25,384 nucleotides of DNA from a virus. Lineage: Duplodnaviria > Heunggongvirae > Uroviricota > Caudoviricetes. The notes under the pieces were generated by a model. That model ran no database searches. It was not told the origin of the DNA and saw only the letters and a program-made list of their open reading frames with translations. The first letter of the stretch is position 1. Each line of letters begins with the position of its first letter. The position numbers were made by a program, and so were the translations under genes. Below are positions 1 through 25,384 of the stretch, in pieces. Location: the IMG/VR virus record IMGVR_UViG_2585427773_000007; one strand, 5' to 3'.

Positions 1-1572
1 TTACTGAGAGCTCAGATCAACTTTCCAGGGCAACAGATCGCGTACCCGGTTTGCCGGCCAGTCCTGGATATGTTCAATGACGTAACGCAGCCACTTTTCT
101 GGCTCCACATTGTTCAGACGGCATGTGCCGATCAGCGAGTACAACACCGCCGCATGTTCACCACCGCTGTCGGAACCCGCGAACATCCAGTTTTTCCGGC
201 CTACGGCCACTCCCCGTAAGGCGTTCTCTGCGATGTTGTTGTCGATTTCCACCCAGCCATTACTGCAGTACACGTTCAGTGCATCCCACTGTTTCAGCAG
301 GTATGCGAACGCTTTTGCCGTATCTGAGTGACGCGACAGTGTTTTCATCTGTTGCTGTATCCAGTCATACAGTGACTGCATCAGTGGCGCGGCTCTGGCT
401 TTTCTTGCCGCCAGACGCTGTTCTGCTGAACAGCCCCGGACCTCTGCCTCGATGGCATACAGTTCACCGATACGCTGCAGGGCTTCCGTGGTGATGTAGG
501 TGGGCGCTCTTGCATGCACATCGTGGATTTTTCTCCGGGCATGAGCCATACACGCGACTTCCGTTATTCTGCCGGATTCGTATAACGCCCGGTAACCACC
601 GTAAGCATCGGCCTGAAGCACACCGCTGTAACCGGCCAGGTGATTTTGTGGATGGATACCTTTCCGGTCCGGACTGTACGCGAACCAGACCGCCGGGGGC
701 ATCTGTGAACCGGCGTTACGGTCATCACGGACGTAGACCCACAGCCGGGCTGTCCGGGTTTTACCGCTGCCCGGCTCCTGGACCGGGACGGGGATATCAT
801 CAGCATGGACTTTACCGGGCATCAGCACATACTGGCGCAGGACGTCATACAGCGGCTCCAGCAGTTCAGCAACAGCACCTGTCCAGCGCCCCAGTGTGGC
901 ACGGCTCAGCTCCACTCCCTGACGACGGTATATTTCTGACTGGCGGTATAACGGCAGATGGTCTGCATATTTCCCGGTGACAACATGGGCCAGAAGCCCC
1001 GCTCCGGCATAACTGCGTGCAATGGGTTTTGAAGGTACTGGTGCCTGCACGATATGGTCGCACCGGCAACAGGCCTGTTTCGGACGTTGTGTTTCGATAA
1101 CCTTAAAGGCGCTGCTGATAAGCTCCAGTTGCTCTGACACATCACATCCCAGAGAACTGAGTTCACCACCACAGGCAGGACAGCATTCCTCTTCCGGCCG
1201 GATAACCCGGGTTTCACGGGGAAGTGAGGCCGGTAACGGTTTACGGGCTGAAGACTGGCGCAGGGCGGATGGCAGTACCGGGTCATATTGCTCACCCAGC
1301 GTTTCCGCCATTTCTTCCTGAAGTGCGCTGATTCGCTCCTGTGCTTCCTGTATCTGCCGTTCGGTTTTTGCACGAAGTTTTTCTGAGCTTTTACCGAACT
1401 GCATACGTTGCAGTTTCGCAACCAGCGCCTTCAGCCGGTTGATTTCGGAAGCATAAGCCGCCACCCGCTGTGAGAGCAGGCGGTTGTATTCAGCCATCTG
1501 GCGGATGGTGTCCTGTTGCGTCTGCAACAGTGCCCGCAGGCGGGCGTTCTCATGAGCAAGTGAGGTGTCCAT
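1..1572 (-). CDS. tnpC: IS66-family transposase (TnpC/Orf3), 523 aa
   Basis: N-terminal coiled-coil/leucine-zipper-like region (LRALLQ...LKALVAKL), paired Cys motifs CCPACGG and CCRCDH (zinc ribbon), and a long C-terminal catalytic region typical of IS66 transposases. Confidence 0.9.
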
Positions 1573-1591
1573 ATCCTCACTTTACAACGGG

Positions 1592-1939
1592 TTATATGCG
1601 GATTCCAGCGCGTTCCGTTCGTTTCGGGTGCTTCCAGTTGATACCTTCAAGAAGCATGGATAACTGAGCCGGAGTAAGGTGCACCTTGCCGTCACGGGTG
1701 ACTGGCCAGACGAAGCGGCCCCGCTCCAGGCGTTTGGTGAAGAGGCACAGTCCGTCACTGTCAGCCCACAACACTTTTATCTGGTCACCCCGGCGTCCGC
1801 GGAAGATGAACAGGTGTCCGGAGAACGGGTCATCCTTCAGGACGTTCTGAACTTTTGATGCCAGGCCGTTAAAGCCATTTCGCATATCGGTGATACCTGC
1901 AACCAGCCAGATACGCGAACCTGCAGGGAGAGATATCAT
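1592..1939 (-). CDS. tnpB: IS66-family accessory protein TnpB (Orf2), 115 aa
   Basis: Size and sequence (ITDMRNGFNGLA...) typical of IS66 Orf2, sitting between tnpA and tnpC. Confidence 0.88.
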   Translation of the reverse strand: MISLPAGSRIWLVAGITDMRNGFNGLASKVQNVLKDDPFSGHLFIFRGRRGDQIKVLWADSDGLCLFTKRLERGRFVWPVTRDGKVHLTPAQLSMLLEGINWKHPKRTERAGIRI

Positions 1940-2616
1940 CAGTGGCTGCTCCCTTTTATTTCGCGGATAAGTGTCTGTAATAACGCCGGCGTCAGTTTAC
2001 CTTTAAGCCTGAGAGTTCCGGCCGGCAGAACCAGCTCACAACACAGACTGTCGGACGGTGTATTTATCTGCTCTGGTTCCTGTGCGGGGGCCGGGATTTT
2101 ATTATCCGGCTCCGGCGTTAACGTCACGGGAAGCAGTGCCGGCATATTTTTTCCGGAAGGCAGCAGGCCACCTTTCCGGTATTGATGGCGCCAGTTGAAG
2201 AGCAGGTTATCGTTGATTCCGTTTTCCCGGGCGATCTGCGCCACACAGGCTCCGGGCTGCAGTGACTGCTCCACTAAGGCGATTTTAAACTCATAAGGGA
2301 AGTTGGGCCGCCGGGGACGTTTTTTTACCACGGGGGCTTCGGATATAACGGTGCTTTCAGGACGTACGACTGGTACCGTGGAAAATTGTCCGTAAAGGCA
2401 GGCATCAAGTTCCTGCTCCGACATGCCTGCGGGCAAAGGCCACGAAAGGCCAGCTCTCCGAAAGCGCACGAACATACTACAAACTGTTGATTTTGGTACA
2501 CCCAGGCGACGCCCGGCCACAACCCGGGGTAAATGTTCTTCAAAGTGAAGACGTAAAGCTTCAGTGATCCAGGTCCGGTGTTTCATACGATAGTGTCCAT
2601 TAAAAATGATGGACAT
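1939..2616 (-). CDS. tnpA: IS66-family TnpA-like protein (Orf1) with helix-turn-helix; 225-aa ORF, true start may be internal
   Basis: HTH-like segment (PGACVAQIARENGINDNLLFNWRHQYRKG) resembling IS3/IS66 OrfA DNA-binding domains. The ORF is longer than a typical IS66 Orf1, so the start codon is uncertain. Confidence 0.7.
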   Translation of the reverse strand: MSIIFNGHYRMKHRTWITEALRLHFEEHLPRVVAGRRLGVPKSTVCSMFVRFRRAGLSWPLPAGMSEQELDACLYGQFSTVPVVRPESTVISEAPVVKKRPRRPNFPYEFKIALVEQSLQPGACVAQIARENGINDNLLFNWRHQYRKGGLLPSGKNMPALLPVTLTPEPDNKIPAPAQEPEQINTPSDSLCCELVLPAGTLRLKGKLTPALLQTLIREIKGSSH

Positions 2617-2649
2617 TATTTTTGTAGAGCCGGAGGAAACAGACCAGAC

Positions 2650-5255
<2,606 letters not shown>

Positions 5256-10545: not shown

Positions 10546-10968
10546 ATGTTCCTGAAAACCGAATCATTTGAATATAACGGTGTGAGCGTCACGCTTTCTG
10601 AACTGTCAGCCCTGCAGCGAATTGAGCATCTCGCCCTGCTGAAACGGCAGGCAGAACAGGCGGAGTCAGACAGCAACCGGAAGTTTACTGTGGAAGACGC
10701 CATCAGAACCGGCGCGTTTCTGGTGGCGATGTCCCTGTGGCATAACCATCCGCAGAAGACGCAGATGCCGTCCATGAATGAAGCCGTTAAACAGATTGAG
10801 CAGGAAGTGCTTACCACCTGGCCTACAGAGGCAATTTCTCATGCTGAAAACGTGGTGTACCGGCTGTCCGGTATGTATGAGTTTGTGGTGAATGATGCCC
10901 CTGAACAGGCAGAGGACGCCGGGCCTGCAGAGCCTGTTTCTGCGGGAAAGTGTTCGACGGTGAGCTGA
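10546..10968 (+). CDS. G: Tail assembly chaperone gpG, 140 aa
   Basis: MFLKTESFEYNGVSVTLSELSALQRIEHL... matches lambda G. Confidence 0.9.
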   Translation: MFLKTESFEYNGVSVTLSELSALQRIEHLALLKRQAEQAESDSNRKFTVEDAIRTGAFLVAMSLWHNHPQKTQMPSMNEAVKQIEQEVLTTWPTEAISHAENVVYRLSGMYEFVVNDAPEQAEDAGPAEPVSAGKCSTVS

Positions 10969-20488: not shown

Positions 20489-23326
20489 ATGGCAGTAAAG
20501 ATTTCAGGTGTACTGAAAGACGGCACAGGAAAACCGGTACAGAACTGCACAATCCAGCTGAAAGCAAAACGTAACAGCACCACGGTGGTGGTGAACACGC
20601 TGGCCTCAGAAAATCCGGATGAAGCCGGGCGTTACAGCATGGACGTTGAGTACGGGCAGTACAGCGTTATTCTGTTGGTGGAGGGATTCCCGCCGTCACA
20701 TGCCGGGACCATCACCGTGTATGAAGATTCCCGGCCCGGTACGCTGAATGATTTTCTCGGTGCCATGACGGAGGATGATGCCCGTCCGGAGGCACTGCGC
20801 CGTTTTGAGCTGATGGTGGAAGAGGTGGCGCGTAACGCGTCCGCGGTGGCACAGAACACGGCAGCCGCGAAGAAGTCAGCCAGCGATGCCAGCACATCAG
20901 CCCGTGAGGCGGCAACCCATGCGACTGATGCTGCAGGCTCAGCACGCGCAGCCAGCACGTCAGCCGGACAGGCCGCGTCGTCGGCTCAGTCAGCGTCTTC
21001 CAGCGCAGGAACGGCATCGACAAAGGCCCGTGAAGCAGCAAAAAGTGCTGCTGCTGCAGAGTCCTCAAAAAGCGCGGCAACTACCAGTGCCGGTGCGGCG
21101 AAAACGTCAGAAACGAATGCGGCAGCGTCACAACAATCAGCAGCCACTTCTGCATCCGCCGCGACCACGAAGGCGTCAGAAGCAGCCACCTCAGCCCGGG
21201 ATGCGGCGGCCTCAAAAGAGGCAGCGAAATCATCAGAAACGAACGCATCATCAAGCGCCAGTAGTGCCGCTTCCTCGGCAACGGCGGCAGGCAATTCCGC
21301 GAAGGCGGCAAAGACGTCTGAGACAAACGCCAGGTCTTCTGAAACGGCAGCGGGACAGAGCGCCTCGGCTGCGGCAGGCTCAAAAACAGCGGCTGCGTCG
21401 TCTGCCAGCGCCGCGTCAACAAGTGCCGGGCAGGCCTCAGCCAGTGCCACCGCCGCCGGAAAATCGGCAGAAAGCGCCGCATCATCCGCTTCAACAGCCA
21501 CAACGAAGGCTGGCGAAGCCACTGAGCAGGCCAGCGCAGCAGCGAGGTCAGCTTCCGCAGCGAAGACATCCGAAACGAACGCGAAAGCGTCGGAAACCAG
21601 CGCAGAATCCTCAAAAACGGCTGCCGCATCGTCAGCCAGTTCGGCGTCGTCATCGGCCTCATCGGCGTCTGCTTCAAAAGATGAGGCGACCAGACAAGCG
21701 TCAGCAGCGAAGGGCAGCGCCACGACGGCATCCACGAAGGCAACAGAGGCTGCTGGCAGTGCGACGGCGGCATCTCAGAGCAAAGTTGCTGCTGAATCCG
21801 CGGCAACGCGTGCCGAAACAGCGGCAAAACGGGCAGAGGATATTGCTGATGCCGTATCTCTGGAAGATGCGAGTACGACGAAAAAAGGTGTGGTTCAGCT
21901 CAGTAGCGCCACTAACAGCCCGTCTGAAACGCTGGCTGCGACACCAAAAGCGGTTAAGGCGGTAATGGATGAAACGAACAAGAAAGCGCCCTTAAATAGT
22001 CCTGCACTGACCGGAACGCCAACAACGCCAACTGCGCCAAAAGGTACTAATAATACTCAGATCGCAAGTACGGCTTATGTGATGGCCGCGATTGCCGCCC
22101 TTGTAGACTCGTCGCCTGACGCACTGAATACGCTGAACGAGTTAGCGGCGGCGCTGGGCAACGACCCGAATTTTGCGACCACCATGACTAACGCGCTTGC
22201 GGGTAAGCAACCGAAAGATGCCACCCTGACGGCGCTGGCCGGGCTTGCTACTGCGGCAGACAGGTTTCCGTATTTTACGGGGAATGATGTCGCCAGCCTG
22301 GCAACCCTGACAAAAGTCGGGCGGGATATTCTTGCGAAATCGACCGTTGCTGCCGTTATCGAATACCTCGGTTTACAGGAAACGGTAAATCAGGCTTCTG
22401 GCGCATTACAGAAAAACCAGAACGGCGCAGATATTCCGGGAAAAGATACCTTCACCAAAAACATTGGTGCCTGCCGCGCATATAGCGCATGGCTGAATAT
22501 TGGTGGCGATAGTCAGGTCTGGACAACTGCGCAATTTATTTCGTGGCTGGAGAGTCAGGGGGCATTTAACCATCCTTACTGGATGTGCAAAGGCTCATGG
22601 GCTTATGCAAATAATAAGGTTATTACAGATACAGGTTGCGGAAATATTTGTCTTGCAGGTGCTGTGGTGGAAGTTATTGGCACTCGCGGCGCAATGACCA
22701 TACGCGTTACTACGCCGAGCACGTCCAGCGGTGGCGGAATTACTAACGCTCAATTCACTTATATTAATCATGGTGATGCTTACGCTCCTGGCTGGCGACG
22801 AGACTACAACACGAAAAACCAGCAGCCTGCATTTGCTTTAGGGCAAACAGGACGCAGGGTCGCAAATGATAAAGCTGTTGGCTGGAACTGGAATAGCGGT
22901 GTTTATGATGCAGATATCAGTGGTGCATCGACATTAATCCTCCACTTCAATATGAATGCGGGGAGTTGCCCTGCTGTACAGTTCCGCGTGAATTACAGGA
23001 ACGGCGGGATTTTTTATCGTTCAGCGCGTGATGGTTATGGCTTTGAAGCTAACTGGTCAGAGTTTTACACCACAACACGCAAACCCTCTGCGGGGGATGT
23101 TGGTGCATATACGCAGGCAGAATGTAACTCAAGGTTTATTACAGGTATTCGCCTTGGCGGTCTGTCATCTGTTCAGACATGGAAAGGCCCCGGCTGGTCT
23201 GACAGGTCAGGTTATGTCGTTACGGGTTCAGTTAACGGAAACCGTGCTGAATTAATTGATACAACTCAGGCAAGGCCAATTCAGTATTGCATTAATGGGA
23301 CGTGGTATAACGCGGGGAGTATTTAA
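20489..23326 (+). CDS. stf: Side tail fibre protein Stf, 945 aa from ATG 20489: lambda-Stf-like N-terminus with an Ala/Ser-rich tract, then a Mu S / P1 S-like variable C-terminal domain
   Basis: MAVKISGVLKDGTGKPVQNCTIQLKA... matches the lambda Stf N-terminus; a gix-like site sits in-frame at 22356-22383; the C-terminus ends ...INGTWYNAGSI, mirrored by the inverted alternative exon. Confidence 0.88.
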   Translation: MAVKISGVLKDGTGKPVQNCTIQLKAKRNSTTVVVNTLASENPDEAGRYSMDVEYGQYSVILLVEGFPPSHAGTITVYEDSRPGTLNDFLGAMTEDDARPEALRRFELMVEEVARNASAVAQNTAAAKKSASDASTSAREAATHATDAAGSARAASTSAGQAASSAQSASSSAGTASTKAREAAKSAAAAESSKSAATTSAGAAKTSETNAAASQQSAATSASAATTKASEAATSARDAAASKEAAKSSETNASSSASSAASSATAAGNSAKAAKTSETNARSSETAAGQSASAAAGSKTAAASSASAASTSAGQASASATAAGKSAESAASSASTATTKAGEATEQASAAARSASAAKTSETNAKASETSAESSKTAAASSASSASSSASSASASKDEATRQASAAKGSATTASTKATEAAGSATAASQSKVAAESAATRAETAAKRAEDIADAVSLEDASTTKKGVVQLSSATNSPSETLAATPKAVKAVMDETNKKAPLNSPALTGTPTTPTAPKGTNNTQIASTAYVMAAIAALVDSSPDALNTLNELAAALGNDPNFATTMTNALAGKQPKDATLTALAGLATAADRFPYFTGNDVASLATLTKVGRDILAKSTVAAVIEYLGLQETVNQASGALQKNQNGADIPGKDTFTKNIGACRAYSAWLNIGGDSQVWTTAQFISWLESQGAFNHPYWMCKGSWAYANNKVITDTGCGNICLAGAVVEVIGTRGAMTIRVTTPSTSSGGGITNAQFTYINHGDAYAPGWRRDYNTKNQQPAFALGQTGRRVANDKAVGWNWNSGVYDADISGASTLILHFNMNAGSCPAVQFRVNYRNGGIFYRSARDGYGFEANWSEFYTTTRKPSAGDVGAYTQAECNSRFITGIRLGGLSSVQTWKGPGWSDRSGYVVTGSVNGNRAELIDTTQARPIQYCINGTWYNAGSI
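20850..21850 (+). repeat. Low-complexity Ala/Ser/Thr-rich coding repeat tract within stf (iterated ...AAKTSETNA... / ...SASSAS... units)
   Basis: GC-rich GCN/TCN codon repeats visible in the translation; they leave two other frames stop-free (spurious ORFs 20886-21965 +, 20986-21735 -, 21081-21827 -). Confidence 0.8.
22356..22383 (+). other. Candidate gix/pix-type recombination (crossover) site for a serine DNA invertase, embedded in stf at the constant/variable junction
   Basis: TTATCGAATACCTCGGTTTACAGGAAAC differs at only about 2 of 28 positions from the Mu gixL sequence as I recall it, has imperfect dyad symmetry around the central TC, and encodes the ...IEYLGLQE... junction. Confidence 0.6.
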
Positions 23327-23328
23327 CG

Positions 23329-23862
23329 ATGATGCACTTAAAAAACATTACTGCTGGCAACCCTAAAACAAAAGAGCAATACCAGCTAACAAAGCAATTT
23401 AACATCAAATGGCTTTATTCAGATGATGGAAAAAACTGGTATGAGGAACAAAAGAATTTCCAGCCAGACACTTTGAAAATGGTCTATGACCATAACGGCG
23501 TTATTATTTGTATTGAAAAGGATGTTTCAGCAATTAATCCAGAGGGTGCAAGCGTCGTTGAATTACCTGATATTACAGCAAATCGCCGGGCTGATATTTC
23601 GGGGAAATGGATGTTCAAAGATGGCGTAGTGATAAAGCGAACTTATACCGAGGAAGAGCAGAGGCAACAAGCGGAAAATGAAAAGCAAAGCCTGTTGCAA
23701 CTTGTCAGGGATAAAACCCAGCTATGGGACTCACAGCTACGGCTGGGCATCATTTCCGACGAGAATAAACAAAAATTAACCGAGTGGATGCTCTATGCGC
23801 AGAAAGTCGAATCTACAGACACTTCCGGCCTGCCAGTAACGTTTCCCGAACAACCAGAATGA
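23329..23862 (+). CDS. tfa: Tail fibre assembly protein Tfa (Mu U-like), 177 aa
   Basis: Starts 3 nt after the stf stop; about 55% identical to the inverted paralogue at 23891-24418 (shared [28 protein letters not shown] motifs). Confidence 0.85.
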   Translation: MMHLKNITAGNPKTKEQYQLTKQFNIKWLYSDDGKNWYEEQKNFQPDTLKMVYDHNGVIICIEKDVSAINPEGASVVELPDITANRRADISGKWMFKDGVVIKRTYTEEEQRQQAENEKQSLLQLVRDKTQLWDSQLRLGIISDENKQKLTEWMLYAQKVESTDTSGLPVTFPEQPE

Positions 23863-23865
23863 GAG

Positions 23866-23892
23866 AAGGCCCGCTATCGGGCCTTAATTTTT
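23866..23892. terminator. Hairpin between the convergent tfa genes, with a T-run on the + strand
   Basis: AAGGCCCG-CTAT-CGGGCCTT followed by AATTTTT. Confidence 0.5.
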
Positions 23893-24418
23893 ACTCTGGT
23901 TTTTGTGGCCATTCAGGATTTGCCGTATCCACACGGCTGACCAGAACACTGTAGCGTTCCCATGCTTCCAGTCGTGTGCGTTCCTCGTCTGTTGCCATAT
24001 TCAGCCTGACAGCGCGTTCCAGCGGTTGGATGACTGATTCAGCTTCGGAAAGCAATGCGGCCTTTTGTGATTCGGCCTGTTGTTGTTGCTCGTCTGCCGT
24101 ATAAATCCGTTTAACCACAGCTCCGTCCCTAAACATCCACTTACCGGAATCATCAGCGCAGCGGTTGGCTGTAATATCTGGAACCTCAACGACGCTATAA
24201 CCTTCAGGGTTAAGCGTGGAGGCATCTTTGGTGATGGCGACAATAATATTATTTGCATCGTAAACAATCTTTATTGTGTCTGGCTGAAAGTTTTTCACTT
24301 CCTCATACCAGTTTTTTCCGTCTTCGGACCATAACCAGATAACATCAAAATTCTTTGTTAGCTGATATTGTTCTTTTGTTTTTGGATTTCCAGACTTAAT
24401 ATTTTTTAAATGCTGCAT
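23891..24418 (-). CDS. Alternative tail fibre assembly protein Tfa-prime (Mu U-prime-like), 175 aa, inverted orientation
   Basis: Paralogue of the + strand tfa in convergent orientation; positioned directly downstream (on the - strand) of the inverted alternative fibre exon. Confidence 0.85.
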
Positions 24419-24421
24419 AAA

Positions 24422-25384
24422 TTACACCTGTACGACGTTATACCATGTGCCATTGATGTATTTTTGTATTGGTCTGAATACTGCCGGATCATCGCCATCA
24501 ACTGCACCGATAATGCCAAGCCCCGTAATTGCATGACCTGATTTCTCATACATCACGCCTTTTTGCATAGTCTGAACAACACGTGTACCAAGTCGGACAT
24601 CTCTCACATAACGTGAGTCAAAATTACCATAATTGCCGGGAATAACTTGCGCACCGCAAAGCCAGTTGCCATTGTTGTCCATGTACGCCTGACCATCGGT
24701 GCCATTGGCTGTCCTTGAGTTATTAATCATGTAGATGCCAAATTGCTTATTCCCCAGTCCACCAATCATAAATTTGCGATCAGCGTGGTCCTGACGAAGT
24801 AATGCCTGCGCACCATCGGTGGATACCGCATTGCGTCCCAAAATAACATTCTGGTCACGCATATGAATCCACATGCCGGTACTACTGTTAATTGCAAAAC
24901 GGTTTGCAAATATATCCCCTGTAACATCAAGACCATGCCCCATGCTTATCCGACCAGTTCTGAGATTAAGCGTAAAGGGGCGTAGTGGCCCTATATCACC
25001 ATTTTCTCCCTCATTCTCTCGTGTAGGGATGATATGCAGGCATTCTTCAGAACGACGAAAAATAGCACCAAAAGATGAATTAAATATCCTCAGTGCATTG
25101 ACTGTCGATATTTTTACTTCACTGCTGAAAAGGGCTTTAACAAGGACAGACAAAGCATCCCATTTAAGAGTCATCAGGTCTTTTGTTGTGGTGCTCTGGC
25201 GGCTTCTCCATTTGAAATATTCATTGCCGTTGTCGCCTGTTTCAAACCACATGTATGAATCAGTGTCGCTGTCGGCATTATTTTTAAAACCAATCTTTGC
25301 CCAGTCAGTATTTCTAATCCAGGCAAGGATTGAGTCGTTTTCAAAAGTAAGCCCACCGGACAAGGTATCGCCATTCTTTTGCAC
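24422..25384 (-). CDS. Alternative side-tail-fibre variable C-terminal exon (Sv-prime-like), partial; runs off the 3' window edge and has no start codon in this orientation
   Basis: At least 320 codons on the - strand ending ...PIQKYINGTWYNVVQV, parallel to the stf C-terminus ...PIQYCINGTWYNAGSI. The M at the window edge is an artefact (the codon is GTG). Confidence 0.78.
   Translation of the reverse strand: MQKNGDTLSGGLTFENDSILAWIRNTDWAKIGFKNNADSDTDSYMWFETGDNGNEYFKWRSRQSTTTKDLMTLKWDALSVLVKALFSSEVKISTVNALRIFNSSFGAIFRRSEECLHIIPTRENEGENGDIGPLRPFTLNLRTGRISMGHGLDVTGDIFANRFAINSSTGMWIHMRDQNVILGRNAVSTDGAQALLRQDHADRKFMIGGLGNKQFGIYMINNSRTANGTDGQAYMDNNGNWLCGAQVIPGNYGNFDSRYVRDVRLGTRVVQTMQKGVMYEKSGHAITGLGIIGAVDGDDPAVFRPIQKYINGTWYNVVQV

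Follow-up and report, generated by a model that had tools for sequence, protein, structure and literature searches.

Sequence comparison supported positions 22356-22381 of the window, the whole 25,384-nt stretch of DNA analysed here, as a Din-family (Gin/Hin/Pin) crossover site, namely the stf-proximal bixL of a tail-fibre invertible segment. The crossover site is of an already described type, and as such is known biology of low novelty. What goes slightly past the textbook is the population evidence for at least three inversions of a segment whose own invertase is dead. We consider it very likely that the site is the bixL of a Mu G / P1 C / Shigella B-type segment in a lambda-like prophage, with a dead cis invertase, and that the segment is flipped in trans.

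The crossover site within the stf gene

The original prediction marked a 28-mer, TTATCGAATACCTCGGTTTACAGGAAAC, as a crossover site of the Gin/Hin/Pin family nearly identical to Mu gixL. The sequence was read directly at window 22356-22383 on the plus strand, as predicted, and occurred there as a single copy in the window. The canonical crossover site comprises the first 26 of these 28 bases, with the trailing AC lying outside; the site itself was real, and its proposed 28-bp extent was two bases too long. The predicted pair of imperfect inverted half-sites around a central dinucleotide was present as two 12-bp arms flanking a 2-bp core, and 7 of the 12 arm positions agreed after one arm was reverse-complemented. 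The site and the gene part that precedes its core are as follows:

22356-22381, plus strand: bixL-type crossover site, with outer half-site TTATCGAATACC, core TC (22368-22369) and inner half-site GGTTTACAGGAA
20489-22367, plus strand: constant part of stf with a lambda-type N-terminus (open reading frame; Pfam PF08400 at residues 3-136; start as given by RefSeq in the near-identical L001)

To place the site within its family, we compared it with the Din-family crossover sites tabulated in Table 3 of PMC3241671, which include bixL and bixR and supplied the bix sequences used here, and aligned it with cixL/R and pix from the annotated P1 and K-12 records. The results showed that its reverse complement was identical (26/26) to bixL of the PinB invertible B segment as listed in Table 3 of PMC3241671. 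Both gix sites (gixL and gixR) of the Mu record, TTATCCAAAACCTCGGTTTACAGGAA, agreed with it at 24 of 26 positions, so the resemblance to gix stated in the prediction was essentially right and the family assignment held, with bixL, not gixL, as the best published match. The hixL and cixR sites each agreed at 21 of 26 positions (five mismatches for cixR), and the pix sites differed by 8-10 mismatches.

A position weight matrix was built from hix, cix, pix and mix sites only, with gix and bix left out. By this matrix, window 22356-22381 ranked first among 50,718 window positions (score 24.6, z ~6), and the runner-up (score 9.9) was the same site on the opposite strand. None of the dinucleotide-preserving shuffles matched the 28-mer at three or fewer mismatches. 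Window 10549-10574, a second-best matrix match, stood at chance level (12.8 vs 30.5) and was rejected. The 26-mer had no exact match in the species-representative genomes scanned, probably since that collection holds one genome per species; this result says little about how widely the site is distributed.

The prediction also placed the site exactly where the lambda-like part of Stf gives way to a divergent C-terminus, and the alignments agreed. Nucleotide similarity to lambda stf (83.5%) ended at window 22368, the site core, and megablast similarity to the Mu G, D108, P1 C and P7 C segments began at window 22352-22356, the outer edge of the site. The constant part of Stf comprises 625 residues, and over its final ~100 nt it also shares homology with the P1 Sc end.

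The stf reading frame runs through the site (...A V I E Y L G L Q E T V N...), and conservation of the encoded peptide extends across Stf, Mu S and P1 S, which raises the reading that a conserved fibre peptide, IEYLGLQE, merely looks gix-like by chance or through coding constraint. This reading was refuted by the 26/26 identity to a published recombination site, the matrix rank of 1 in 50,718, an inverted partner with the same core and natural inversions joined at the site (both described below), and also by lambda, which has no switch and retains the outer half-site only.

Partner site and layout of the invertible segment

E. coli genomes that are nearly identical to the window (99.9-100% over its last 3.6 kb) have a downstream partner site, as presupposed by the prediction, in inverted orientation 25 bp beyond the point where the window stops. 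In L001 and ten other loci, this partner site reads TTATCTAAAACC TC GGTTTACAGGAA on the minus strand at a distance of 3,055 bp, and it is identical to bixR (26/26), with the same TC core as bixL in inverted orientation. An identical 25-bp stretch (site positions 10-34) is shared by bixL and bixR. Since the window ends 25 bp early and its exact source lay outside the searched collections, we infer from its relatives (best, 98.9% identity over 90%) the presence of a partner site, the state of the invertase gene and the existence of any helper in the window's own genome. The segment and its genes are arranged as follows:

22368-25384, no strand assigned: invertible segment, 3,055 bp in full, whose first 3,017 bp fall within the window, which ends 25 bp short of bixR
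22370-23326, plus strand: variable C-terminus of Stf, predicted to be currently expressed, homologue of Mu S' (G(-) fibre tip; 95.4% amino acid identity, 323 residues)
23329-23862, plus strand: tail fibre assembly gene, predicted to be currently expressed, homologue of Mu U' (97.2% identity; Pfam PF02413)
23891-24418, minus strand: tail fibre assembly gene, silent alternative, homologue of Mu U (93.7% identity; Pfam PF02413)
24422-25384, minus strand: fibre-tip cassette, silent alternative, homologue of the Mu S C-terminus (70.3% identity to Mu S residues 167-504; Pfam PF21446)

The genes follow the order stf / tfa / tfa' / Sv', as they do in the Mu and P1 segments, to which nucleotide identity was 89-94%. 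Two alternative fibre tips are carried in opposite orientation, each with its own assembly gene, and tfa and tfa' match each other as an internal inverted repeat (161 nt, 75%). The silent fibre-tip cassette is without its own start codon and is truncated at the window end. The window orientation is the state predicted to express the Mu S'/U' homologues. In-silico inversion yielded an in-frame Stf of 959 aa, and the Stf reading frame of the alternative orientation was intact in an inverted genome (L003). With the junction at the site and an in-frame C-terminus in either orientation, the segment has the gene architecture of an invertible tail-fibre segment of the Mu G / P1 C / Shigella B type.

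An IS66-family element lies within the terminase gene of the window's prophage, which looks defective from its sequence. Because this element interrupts the terminase gene, the switch may be without consequence for phage particles in the host.

Natural inversion beside a dead invertase gene

At least 13 complete genomes carried the predicted inverted junction, with 701 nt matching at 100%. The 3,055-bp segment was the exact reverse complement in several genomes, among them PEC1003 and ETEC6 (3-4 SNPs), in which the outer half-sites were unmoved; because the segment had flipped with the outer half-sites fixed, the exchange maps to the core-containing 25-bp stretch. Both orientations thus occur with their junction at the bix site, which is population evidence, from genomes alone, for recombination there.

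No intact serine invertase gene, the mark of an autonomous system, adjoined the segment in the closest genomes. The invertase gene beside it is a dead remnant, with a premature stop followed by a deletion that fuses it to a tfa fragment, and this makes the bix segment a non-autonomous derivative. The remnant is 64 codons long (CGA to TGA) in most carriers. The PSS-16 / 2018-02-2CC sub-lineage has TGG at the CGA/TGA codon but an earlier TAA, and its deletion is identical. The Pfam Resolvase match of the remnant is limited to positions 2-73 of the 145-position model, and the DNA-binding domain is missing. Nucleotides 1-105 of the remnant are 100% identical to Mu gin and span the counterpart of the enhancer annotated in P1 (cin nt 19-90), and the distance from the core to the invertase start is 67 bp, equal to that in Mu. 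Like Mu gin, the remnant has Fis-consensus-like 15-mers at nt 34-48 and 71-85; the strict-consensus scan is a loose check, with ~0.6 chance matches expected per 200 nt. The remnant thus retains an enhancer-homologous sequence, a putative enhancer. In six ETEC strains of one lineage (E54, E1316, E1535, E1648, E1654 and E1739), examined for orientation differences, the remnant is more degraded, bixL is lost and only Sv'-bixR-remnant is kept, which makes them uninformative on orientation.

Orientations were counted with queries forced to span both the crossover site and the invertase deletion junction. Among carriers of the dead invertase, 97 genomes had the window-type orientation and 58 the inverted one. 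We also compared opposite-orientation pairs, counting differences over the left 2.5 kb, the segment and the right 2.1 kb. The pairs differed at 0/0/0 positions (63-2 vs PEC1003), 0/2/0 positions (PSS-16 vs 2018-02-2CC) and 2/0/3 positions (ET76 vs PSS-13), and the three sub-lineages differed from one another at 15-25 (left), 5-6 (segment) and 19-229 (right) positions. Because dead-invertase genomes show both orientations and include three near-identical opposite pairs, inversion recurred after invertase loss. By this population evidence, the segment with its dead invertase has inverted at least three separate times, presumably driven in trans.

RecA-dependent homologous recombination between short inverted repeats could also cause an orientation polymorphism, and the sites do share a 25-bp identical stretch inside which the exchange maps. 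A length of ~25 bp is near the minimum for homologous recombination, and recombination on such a length is very rare. Switches were nevertheless found in every one of the three sub-lineages, and the genomes concerned differ at 0-5 positions in 7.6 kb. In addition, the longer internal inverted repeat (tfa/tfa', 161 nt, 75%) was not seen as a junction, and each junction coincided with a sequence that matches a published invertase site in full. We regard the RecA route as very improbable.

Candidate helper invertases, proposed mechanism and known systems

At least one further invertase-like place on the chromosome was found in 45 of the 60 carriers listed. The chromosome of PEC1003, an inverted carrier, was without a second invertase-like place; either its segment may no longer flip, or its helper may be plasmid-borne or already lost. 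In a P2-like prophage the same cassette adjoins an intact 199-aa invertase, and ~14 IMG/VR loci combine Stf and bixL with an invertase reading frame of 195-199 aa. Inversion in trans between prophages has been shown experimentally for PinQ, PinR and PinE on e14, for PinE on the Mu G segment and for Fin on the H segment (PMC12529663). Repeated inversion without a cis invertase fits these recent experiments, in which prophage invertases act on each other's segments (PMC12529663).

In the mechanism that we propose, dimers of a Din-family serine invertase would bind bixL and the inverted bixR, 3,055 bp apart, and the two bound dimers would join a Fis-bound enhancer in the 5' end of the invertase gene, ~85-155 bp from bixR. 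The 2-bp core (TC/GA) would be cut at both sites, one subunit pair would rotate by 180 degrees, and the ends would be religated. Each inversion would swap the last ~320 stf codons together with the downstream assembly gene, between a Mu S'/U'-like and a Mu S/U-like state, and the exchanged fibre tip would change receptor choice. The inversion would be carried out in trans by invertases elsewhere in the cell, such as those of P2-like, Mu-like, e14, Rac/Qin or P1-like elements. The inversion chemistry is established knowledge for the Hin/Gin family; for this segment we infer the chemistry, the Fis dependence, the acting invertase and continued flipping in the window's own host.

Alternatively, the site could be a genuine bixL that nothing flips any longer in the window's host, with its orientation fixed and its sequence kept as Stf coding. 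Consistent with such a relic, the cis invertase is dead in all close relatives examined, the PEC1003 chromosome is without a second invertase-like place, one ETEC lineage has lost bixL and keeps only Sv'-bixR-remnant, and the IS66 insertion in the terminase gene makes the window's prophage look defective. However, the three near-identical opposite-orientation pairs indicate that inversion went on well past invertase loss, most carriers have other invertase-like loci, and both sites, their matching cores and the enhancer-homologous region are all intact. We consider a relic unlikely and favour a bixL segment flipped in trans.

The crossover site marks a probable switch of host range, in which a side tail fibre of lambda type is built with Mu-type parts, and which clearly illustrates modular exchange between unrelated phages. 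The site also explains a 3-kb stretch that differs between assemblies of otherwise identical E. coli strains, and a tail fibre gene that annotation pipelines label 'incomplete' in one orientation. More speculatively, the orphan cassette (sites, enhancer sequence and both tips) might be kept in a lambda-like prophage that occupies the lambda attachment site and is itself defective, since flipping by invertases of co-resident prophages benefits the host, an idea to which we give little credence. If it were true, the cassette could yield Stf variants that keep other phages from adsorbing, for which PinQ and e14 StfE2 are a reported precedent, and could also serve related phages that acquire it by recombination.

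The invertible B segment of Shigella, with bixL/bixR and the pinB invertase, was reportedly described by Tominaga, Ikemizu and Enomoto in 1991 (J Bacteriol 173:4079; GenBank D00660). Compared by sites and size, both of its 26-bp sites are identical to bixL/bixR here, including the GA/TC core, and a size of ~3 kb agrees with the D00660 span 600-3788 (PMC3241671). According to the P1 record annotation, the P1 segment is 93% identical to D00660. Shigella pinB is reported to be functional, whereas the neighbouring gene here is a dead remnant fused to a tfa fragment.

The Mu G segment has the same TC core, a 24/26 site, the same gene order and 92-94% nucleotide identity over the segment, with S' and U' at 95% and 97% protein identity, invertase nt 1-105 identical and the 67-bp core-start spacing shared. 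It differs in its constant part, which is Sc in Mu and a 625-residue lambda-type Stf here, in the silent S-type cassette, which is only 70% identical to Mu S, and in the invertase, which is dead here. The P1/P7 C segment follows the same logic, with a P1 Sc end homologous to the end of the constant Stf and an enhancer annotated in the 5' end of cin, but its core is TT/AA in place of TC/GA, it is 4.2 kb long with longer inverted repeats, and its cin gene is on the opposite side with respect to S. The e14 P segment (pinE) is likewise an invertible stf/tfa cassette in a defective lambdoid prophage, and its inversion by PinQ/PinR, the invertases of the Qin and Rac prophages, has been shown experimentally (PMC12529663; PMC4272514). 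It differs in its pix sites (8-10 mismatches), its 1.8-kb segment and its pinE gene, which is intact in K-12.

Crossover site in stf and its partner

The stf (side tail fibre) reading frame was found to contain a 28-mer at window positions 22356-22383, where the original prediction had placed a gix-like site, and both the sequence and the ORF read agreed with this placement. The surrounding ORF (945/947 codons, 20483/20489-23326) contains the 28-mer in frame and carries the Pfam 'prophage tail fibre N-terminal' domain at its N-terminus. The 28-mer occurred once in the window, and shuffled sequence gave no matches to it with three or fewer mismatches. The site was present as described except in length, its canonical extent being only 26 bp:

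First 26 bases of the 28-mer, canonical site: TTATCGAATACC, core TC (22368-22369), GGTTTACAGGAA

Reference sites of the Din family of serine invertases were drawn from sequence records and the literature. The Mu genome record has TTATCCAAAACCTCGGTTTACAGGAA at both G-segment boundaries, matching the window site at 24 of 26 positions, which bears out the predicted near identity to Mu gixL. The annotated P1 record gave TTATCCAATACCTTGGTTTAAGAGAA for cixR and CAATCCTAAACCTTGGTTTAAGAGAA for cixL, and a pix site of K-12 e14 reads CTCTCGAAAACCTTGGTTTGGGAGAA. In the tabulation of all Din-family sites (Table 3 of PMC3241671), bixL is the reverse complement of the window site (26/26), and bixR equals the partner site in near-identical genomes (26/26). 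A weight matrix trained only on hix, cix, pix and mix sites ranked the window site first among 50,718 positions, more than 6 standard deviations over the mean. These record and table matches and the matrix rank place the likeness to Din sites far beyond chance, and the proposed alignment against published sites thus favoured the prediction. The second-best matrix match in the window (10549-10574, TTCCTGAAAACCGAATCATTTGAATA) was rejected, as only its inner half-site is good and its score (12.8 vs 30.5 for the real site) is at chance level. Judged by these alignments, bixL is the most exact name for the window site. The bix sites are those of the Shigella system made up of pinB and its invertible B segment (Tominaga et al. 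1991; GenBank D00660). The system is already known; both of its sites agree with the published B-segment sites in every base, and the proposed mechanism is that of the classic Hin/Gin systems.

The partner, bixR, was read together with the invertase gene in genomes 99.9-100% identical to the window's last 3.6 kb; it is present there 25 bp past the window end, in minus-strand orientation and with an identical core, at a distance of 3,055 bp from bixL. If the window end is a contig end, assembly may have broken off there because the segment is found in both orientations; the end at 25384 may equally be an arbitrary cut. In the outer half of bixR (9624-9636 of L001, a near-identical E. coli locus), the T at position 6 gives a TAA stop just upstream of the silent tip cassette and in its frame, so that there is no read-through into this cassette from the invertase side, whereas Mu has no stop at the matching position.

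Fibre cassettes and the constant/variable junction

The four units after the site follow the same order as in the Mu G and P1 C segments.

Units following the site in the window
Site to 23326, + strand: rest of stf, expressed tip, 95.4% identical to Mu S'
23329-23862, expressed side: tail fibre assembly gene, protein 97.2% identical to Mu U'
23891-24418, other strand: second tail fibre assembly gene, silent, Mu U counterpart (93.7%)
24422 to window end, other strand: fibre C-terminus without a start, silent, counterpart of the Mu S C-terminus (70.3%)

With the S'/U' counterparts expressed and the U/S counterparts silent, the window is in a 'G(-)-like' state. Megablast similarity to Mu, D108, P7, P1 and relatives (89-94%) begins at the site's outer edge (22352-22356), and lambda stf similarity (83.5%) ends at the core (22368), which agrees with the predicted position between the lambda-like part of Stf and the divergent C-terminus. 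When lambda imm434 (~3230-3260) was aligned to window 22340-22372, lambda stf kept the outer half-site alone, followed by TTGG (GTTCTTGAATACCTTGGggcc), and departed from the window sequence at the core. The fixed tip of the lambda fibre seems to have been joined at a former inversion site.

Inversion of the segment in natural genomes

In-silico inversion between the two cores produced an in-frame 959-residue Stf. At least 13 complete genomes contained the predicted inverted junction with 100% identity across 701 nt, and the native junction was equally frequent. In PEC1003 and ETEC6, the prophage, locus and dead invertase are all as in window-orientation relatives, and the 3,055-bp segment is exactly reverse-complemented, with 3-4 SNPs. 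The outer half-sites have not moved, so the exchange maps to a 25-bp identical stretch with the core. The fused stf is intact in inverted genomes as a 959/961-codon ORF (L003 4466-7351; also L004 and L114-L117); annotation pipelines called it 'incomplete, missing C-terminus' or split it. With a partner present and natural inversions joined at the site, the Din-family reading was upheld: the window site is a partnered Din-family crossover site, located where the constant part of a tail fibre gene meets its variable part.

Queries required to span both the site and the junction of the invertase deletion counted 97 genomes oriented as the window and 58 inverted. A comparison of eleven loci covered 2.5 kb to the left of the segment, the segment itself and 2.1 kb to its right. 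Sub-lineages differed from each other at 15-25 (left), 5-6 (segment) and 19-229 (right) positions, and both orientations occurred within three sub-lineages.

Differences within pairs of opposite orientation (window orientation / inverted)
63-2 / PEC1003: left 0, segment 0, right 0
PSS-16 / 2018-02-2CC: left 0, segment 2, right 0
ET76 / PSS-13: left 2, segment 0, right 3

The invertase deletion was common to all 11 loci; with both orientations in three sub-lineages, at least three inversions therefore took place after invertase loss. RecA-dependent exchange on the 25 bp could account for any single event, but it poorly explains three switches among genomes otherwise identical. Invertases encoded elsewhere would flip the segment in trans, and population evidence of such repeated inversion is the modest addition made here. 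One ETEC lineage (E54, E1316, E1535, E1648, E1654 and E1739; L104-L109) retains a partial J, half the segment, bixR, the remnant and the cyclase gene; with bixL lost, its orientation is frozen.

Invertase remnant, candidate invertases and flanks

In near-identical genomes, 67 bp separate the invertase start codon from the bixR core, the same spacing as in Mu. The gene is dead: most carriers have a CGA-to-TGA change that ends it after 64 codons, and a downstream deletion joins it to a tfa (tail fibre assembly) gene fragment. The locus is therefore a non-autonomous derivative. Of the resolvase catalytic domain, Pfam recognized the first half alone. Over its first 105 nt the remnant matches Mu gin at 100% identity, and this stretch aligns with the annotated enhancer of P1 cin (nt 19-90); such enhancers usually lie ~100 bp from one site and require Fis (PMC3798978). 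In the PSS-16 / 2018-02-2CC remnant, the codon-65 stop reads TGG and an earlier CAA has become TAA, with the deletion unchanged.

A search used a full-length invertase linked to the cyclase gene. Of the 60 carriers that it listed, 45 had one or more additional invertase-like places on their chromosome, and the PEC1003 chromosome had none. In a P2-like prophage, an intact 199-residue invertase adjoins the same cassette. Among 95 IMG/VR contigs with exact bixL, ~14 loci have a lambda-type Stf followed by bixR-type sites and 195-199 aa invertase ORFs, and ~16 have an invertase truncated at 64 or 60 codons. In strain 2017.02.04CC (L112 9971-10976), the stf/segment/remnant/tfa-fragment end lies at the Rac locus, not the lambda attachment site, with intact pinR ~200 nt past the remnant, then ydfK, uspF and ompN. 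Inversion of the e14 P segment by PinQ, PinR and PinE, of the Mu G segment by PinE and of the Salmonella H segment by Fin has been shown experimentally (PMC12529663).

At window 1-2650, an IS66-family element (three minus-strand ORFs; Pfam IS66 transposase, IS66 Orf2 and HTH transposase) adjoins a terminase large-subunit gene, of which the nuclease part alone is left, from 2578. Near-identical prophages have no similarity to the window before ~2670. The window's prophage is probably defective and, given the element in its terminase gene, the fibre switch may be without consequence for particle production in this genome.

Past the tfa fragment come a diguanylate cyclase gene and ybhB-bioA, neighbours that mark the lambda attachment locus as the prophage's position. 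The cyclase gene, an A+T-rich sensor type (L001 10090-11421, ~700 nt past the window end) between the prophage end and ybhB-bioA, may be prophage cargo. Together with the tfa fragment, it also occurs in many genomes without the remainder of the prophage.
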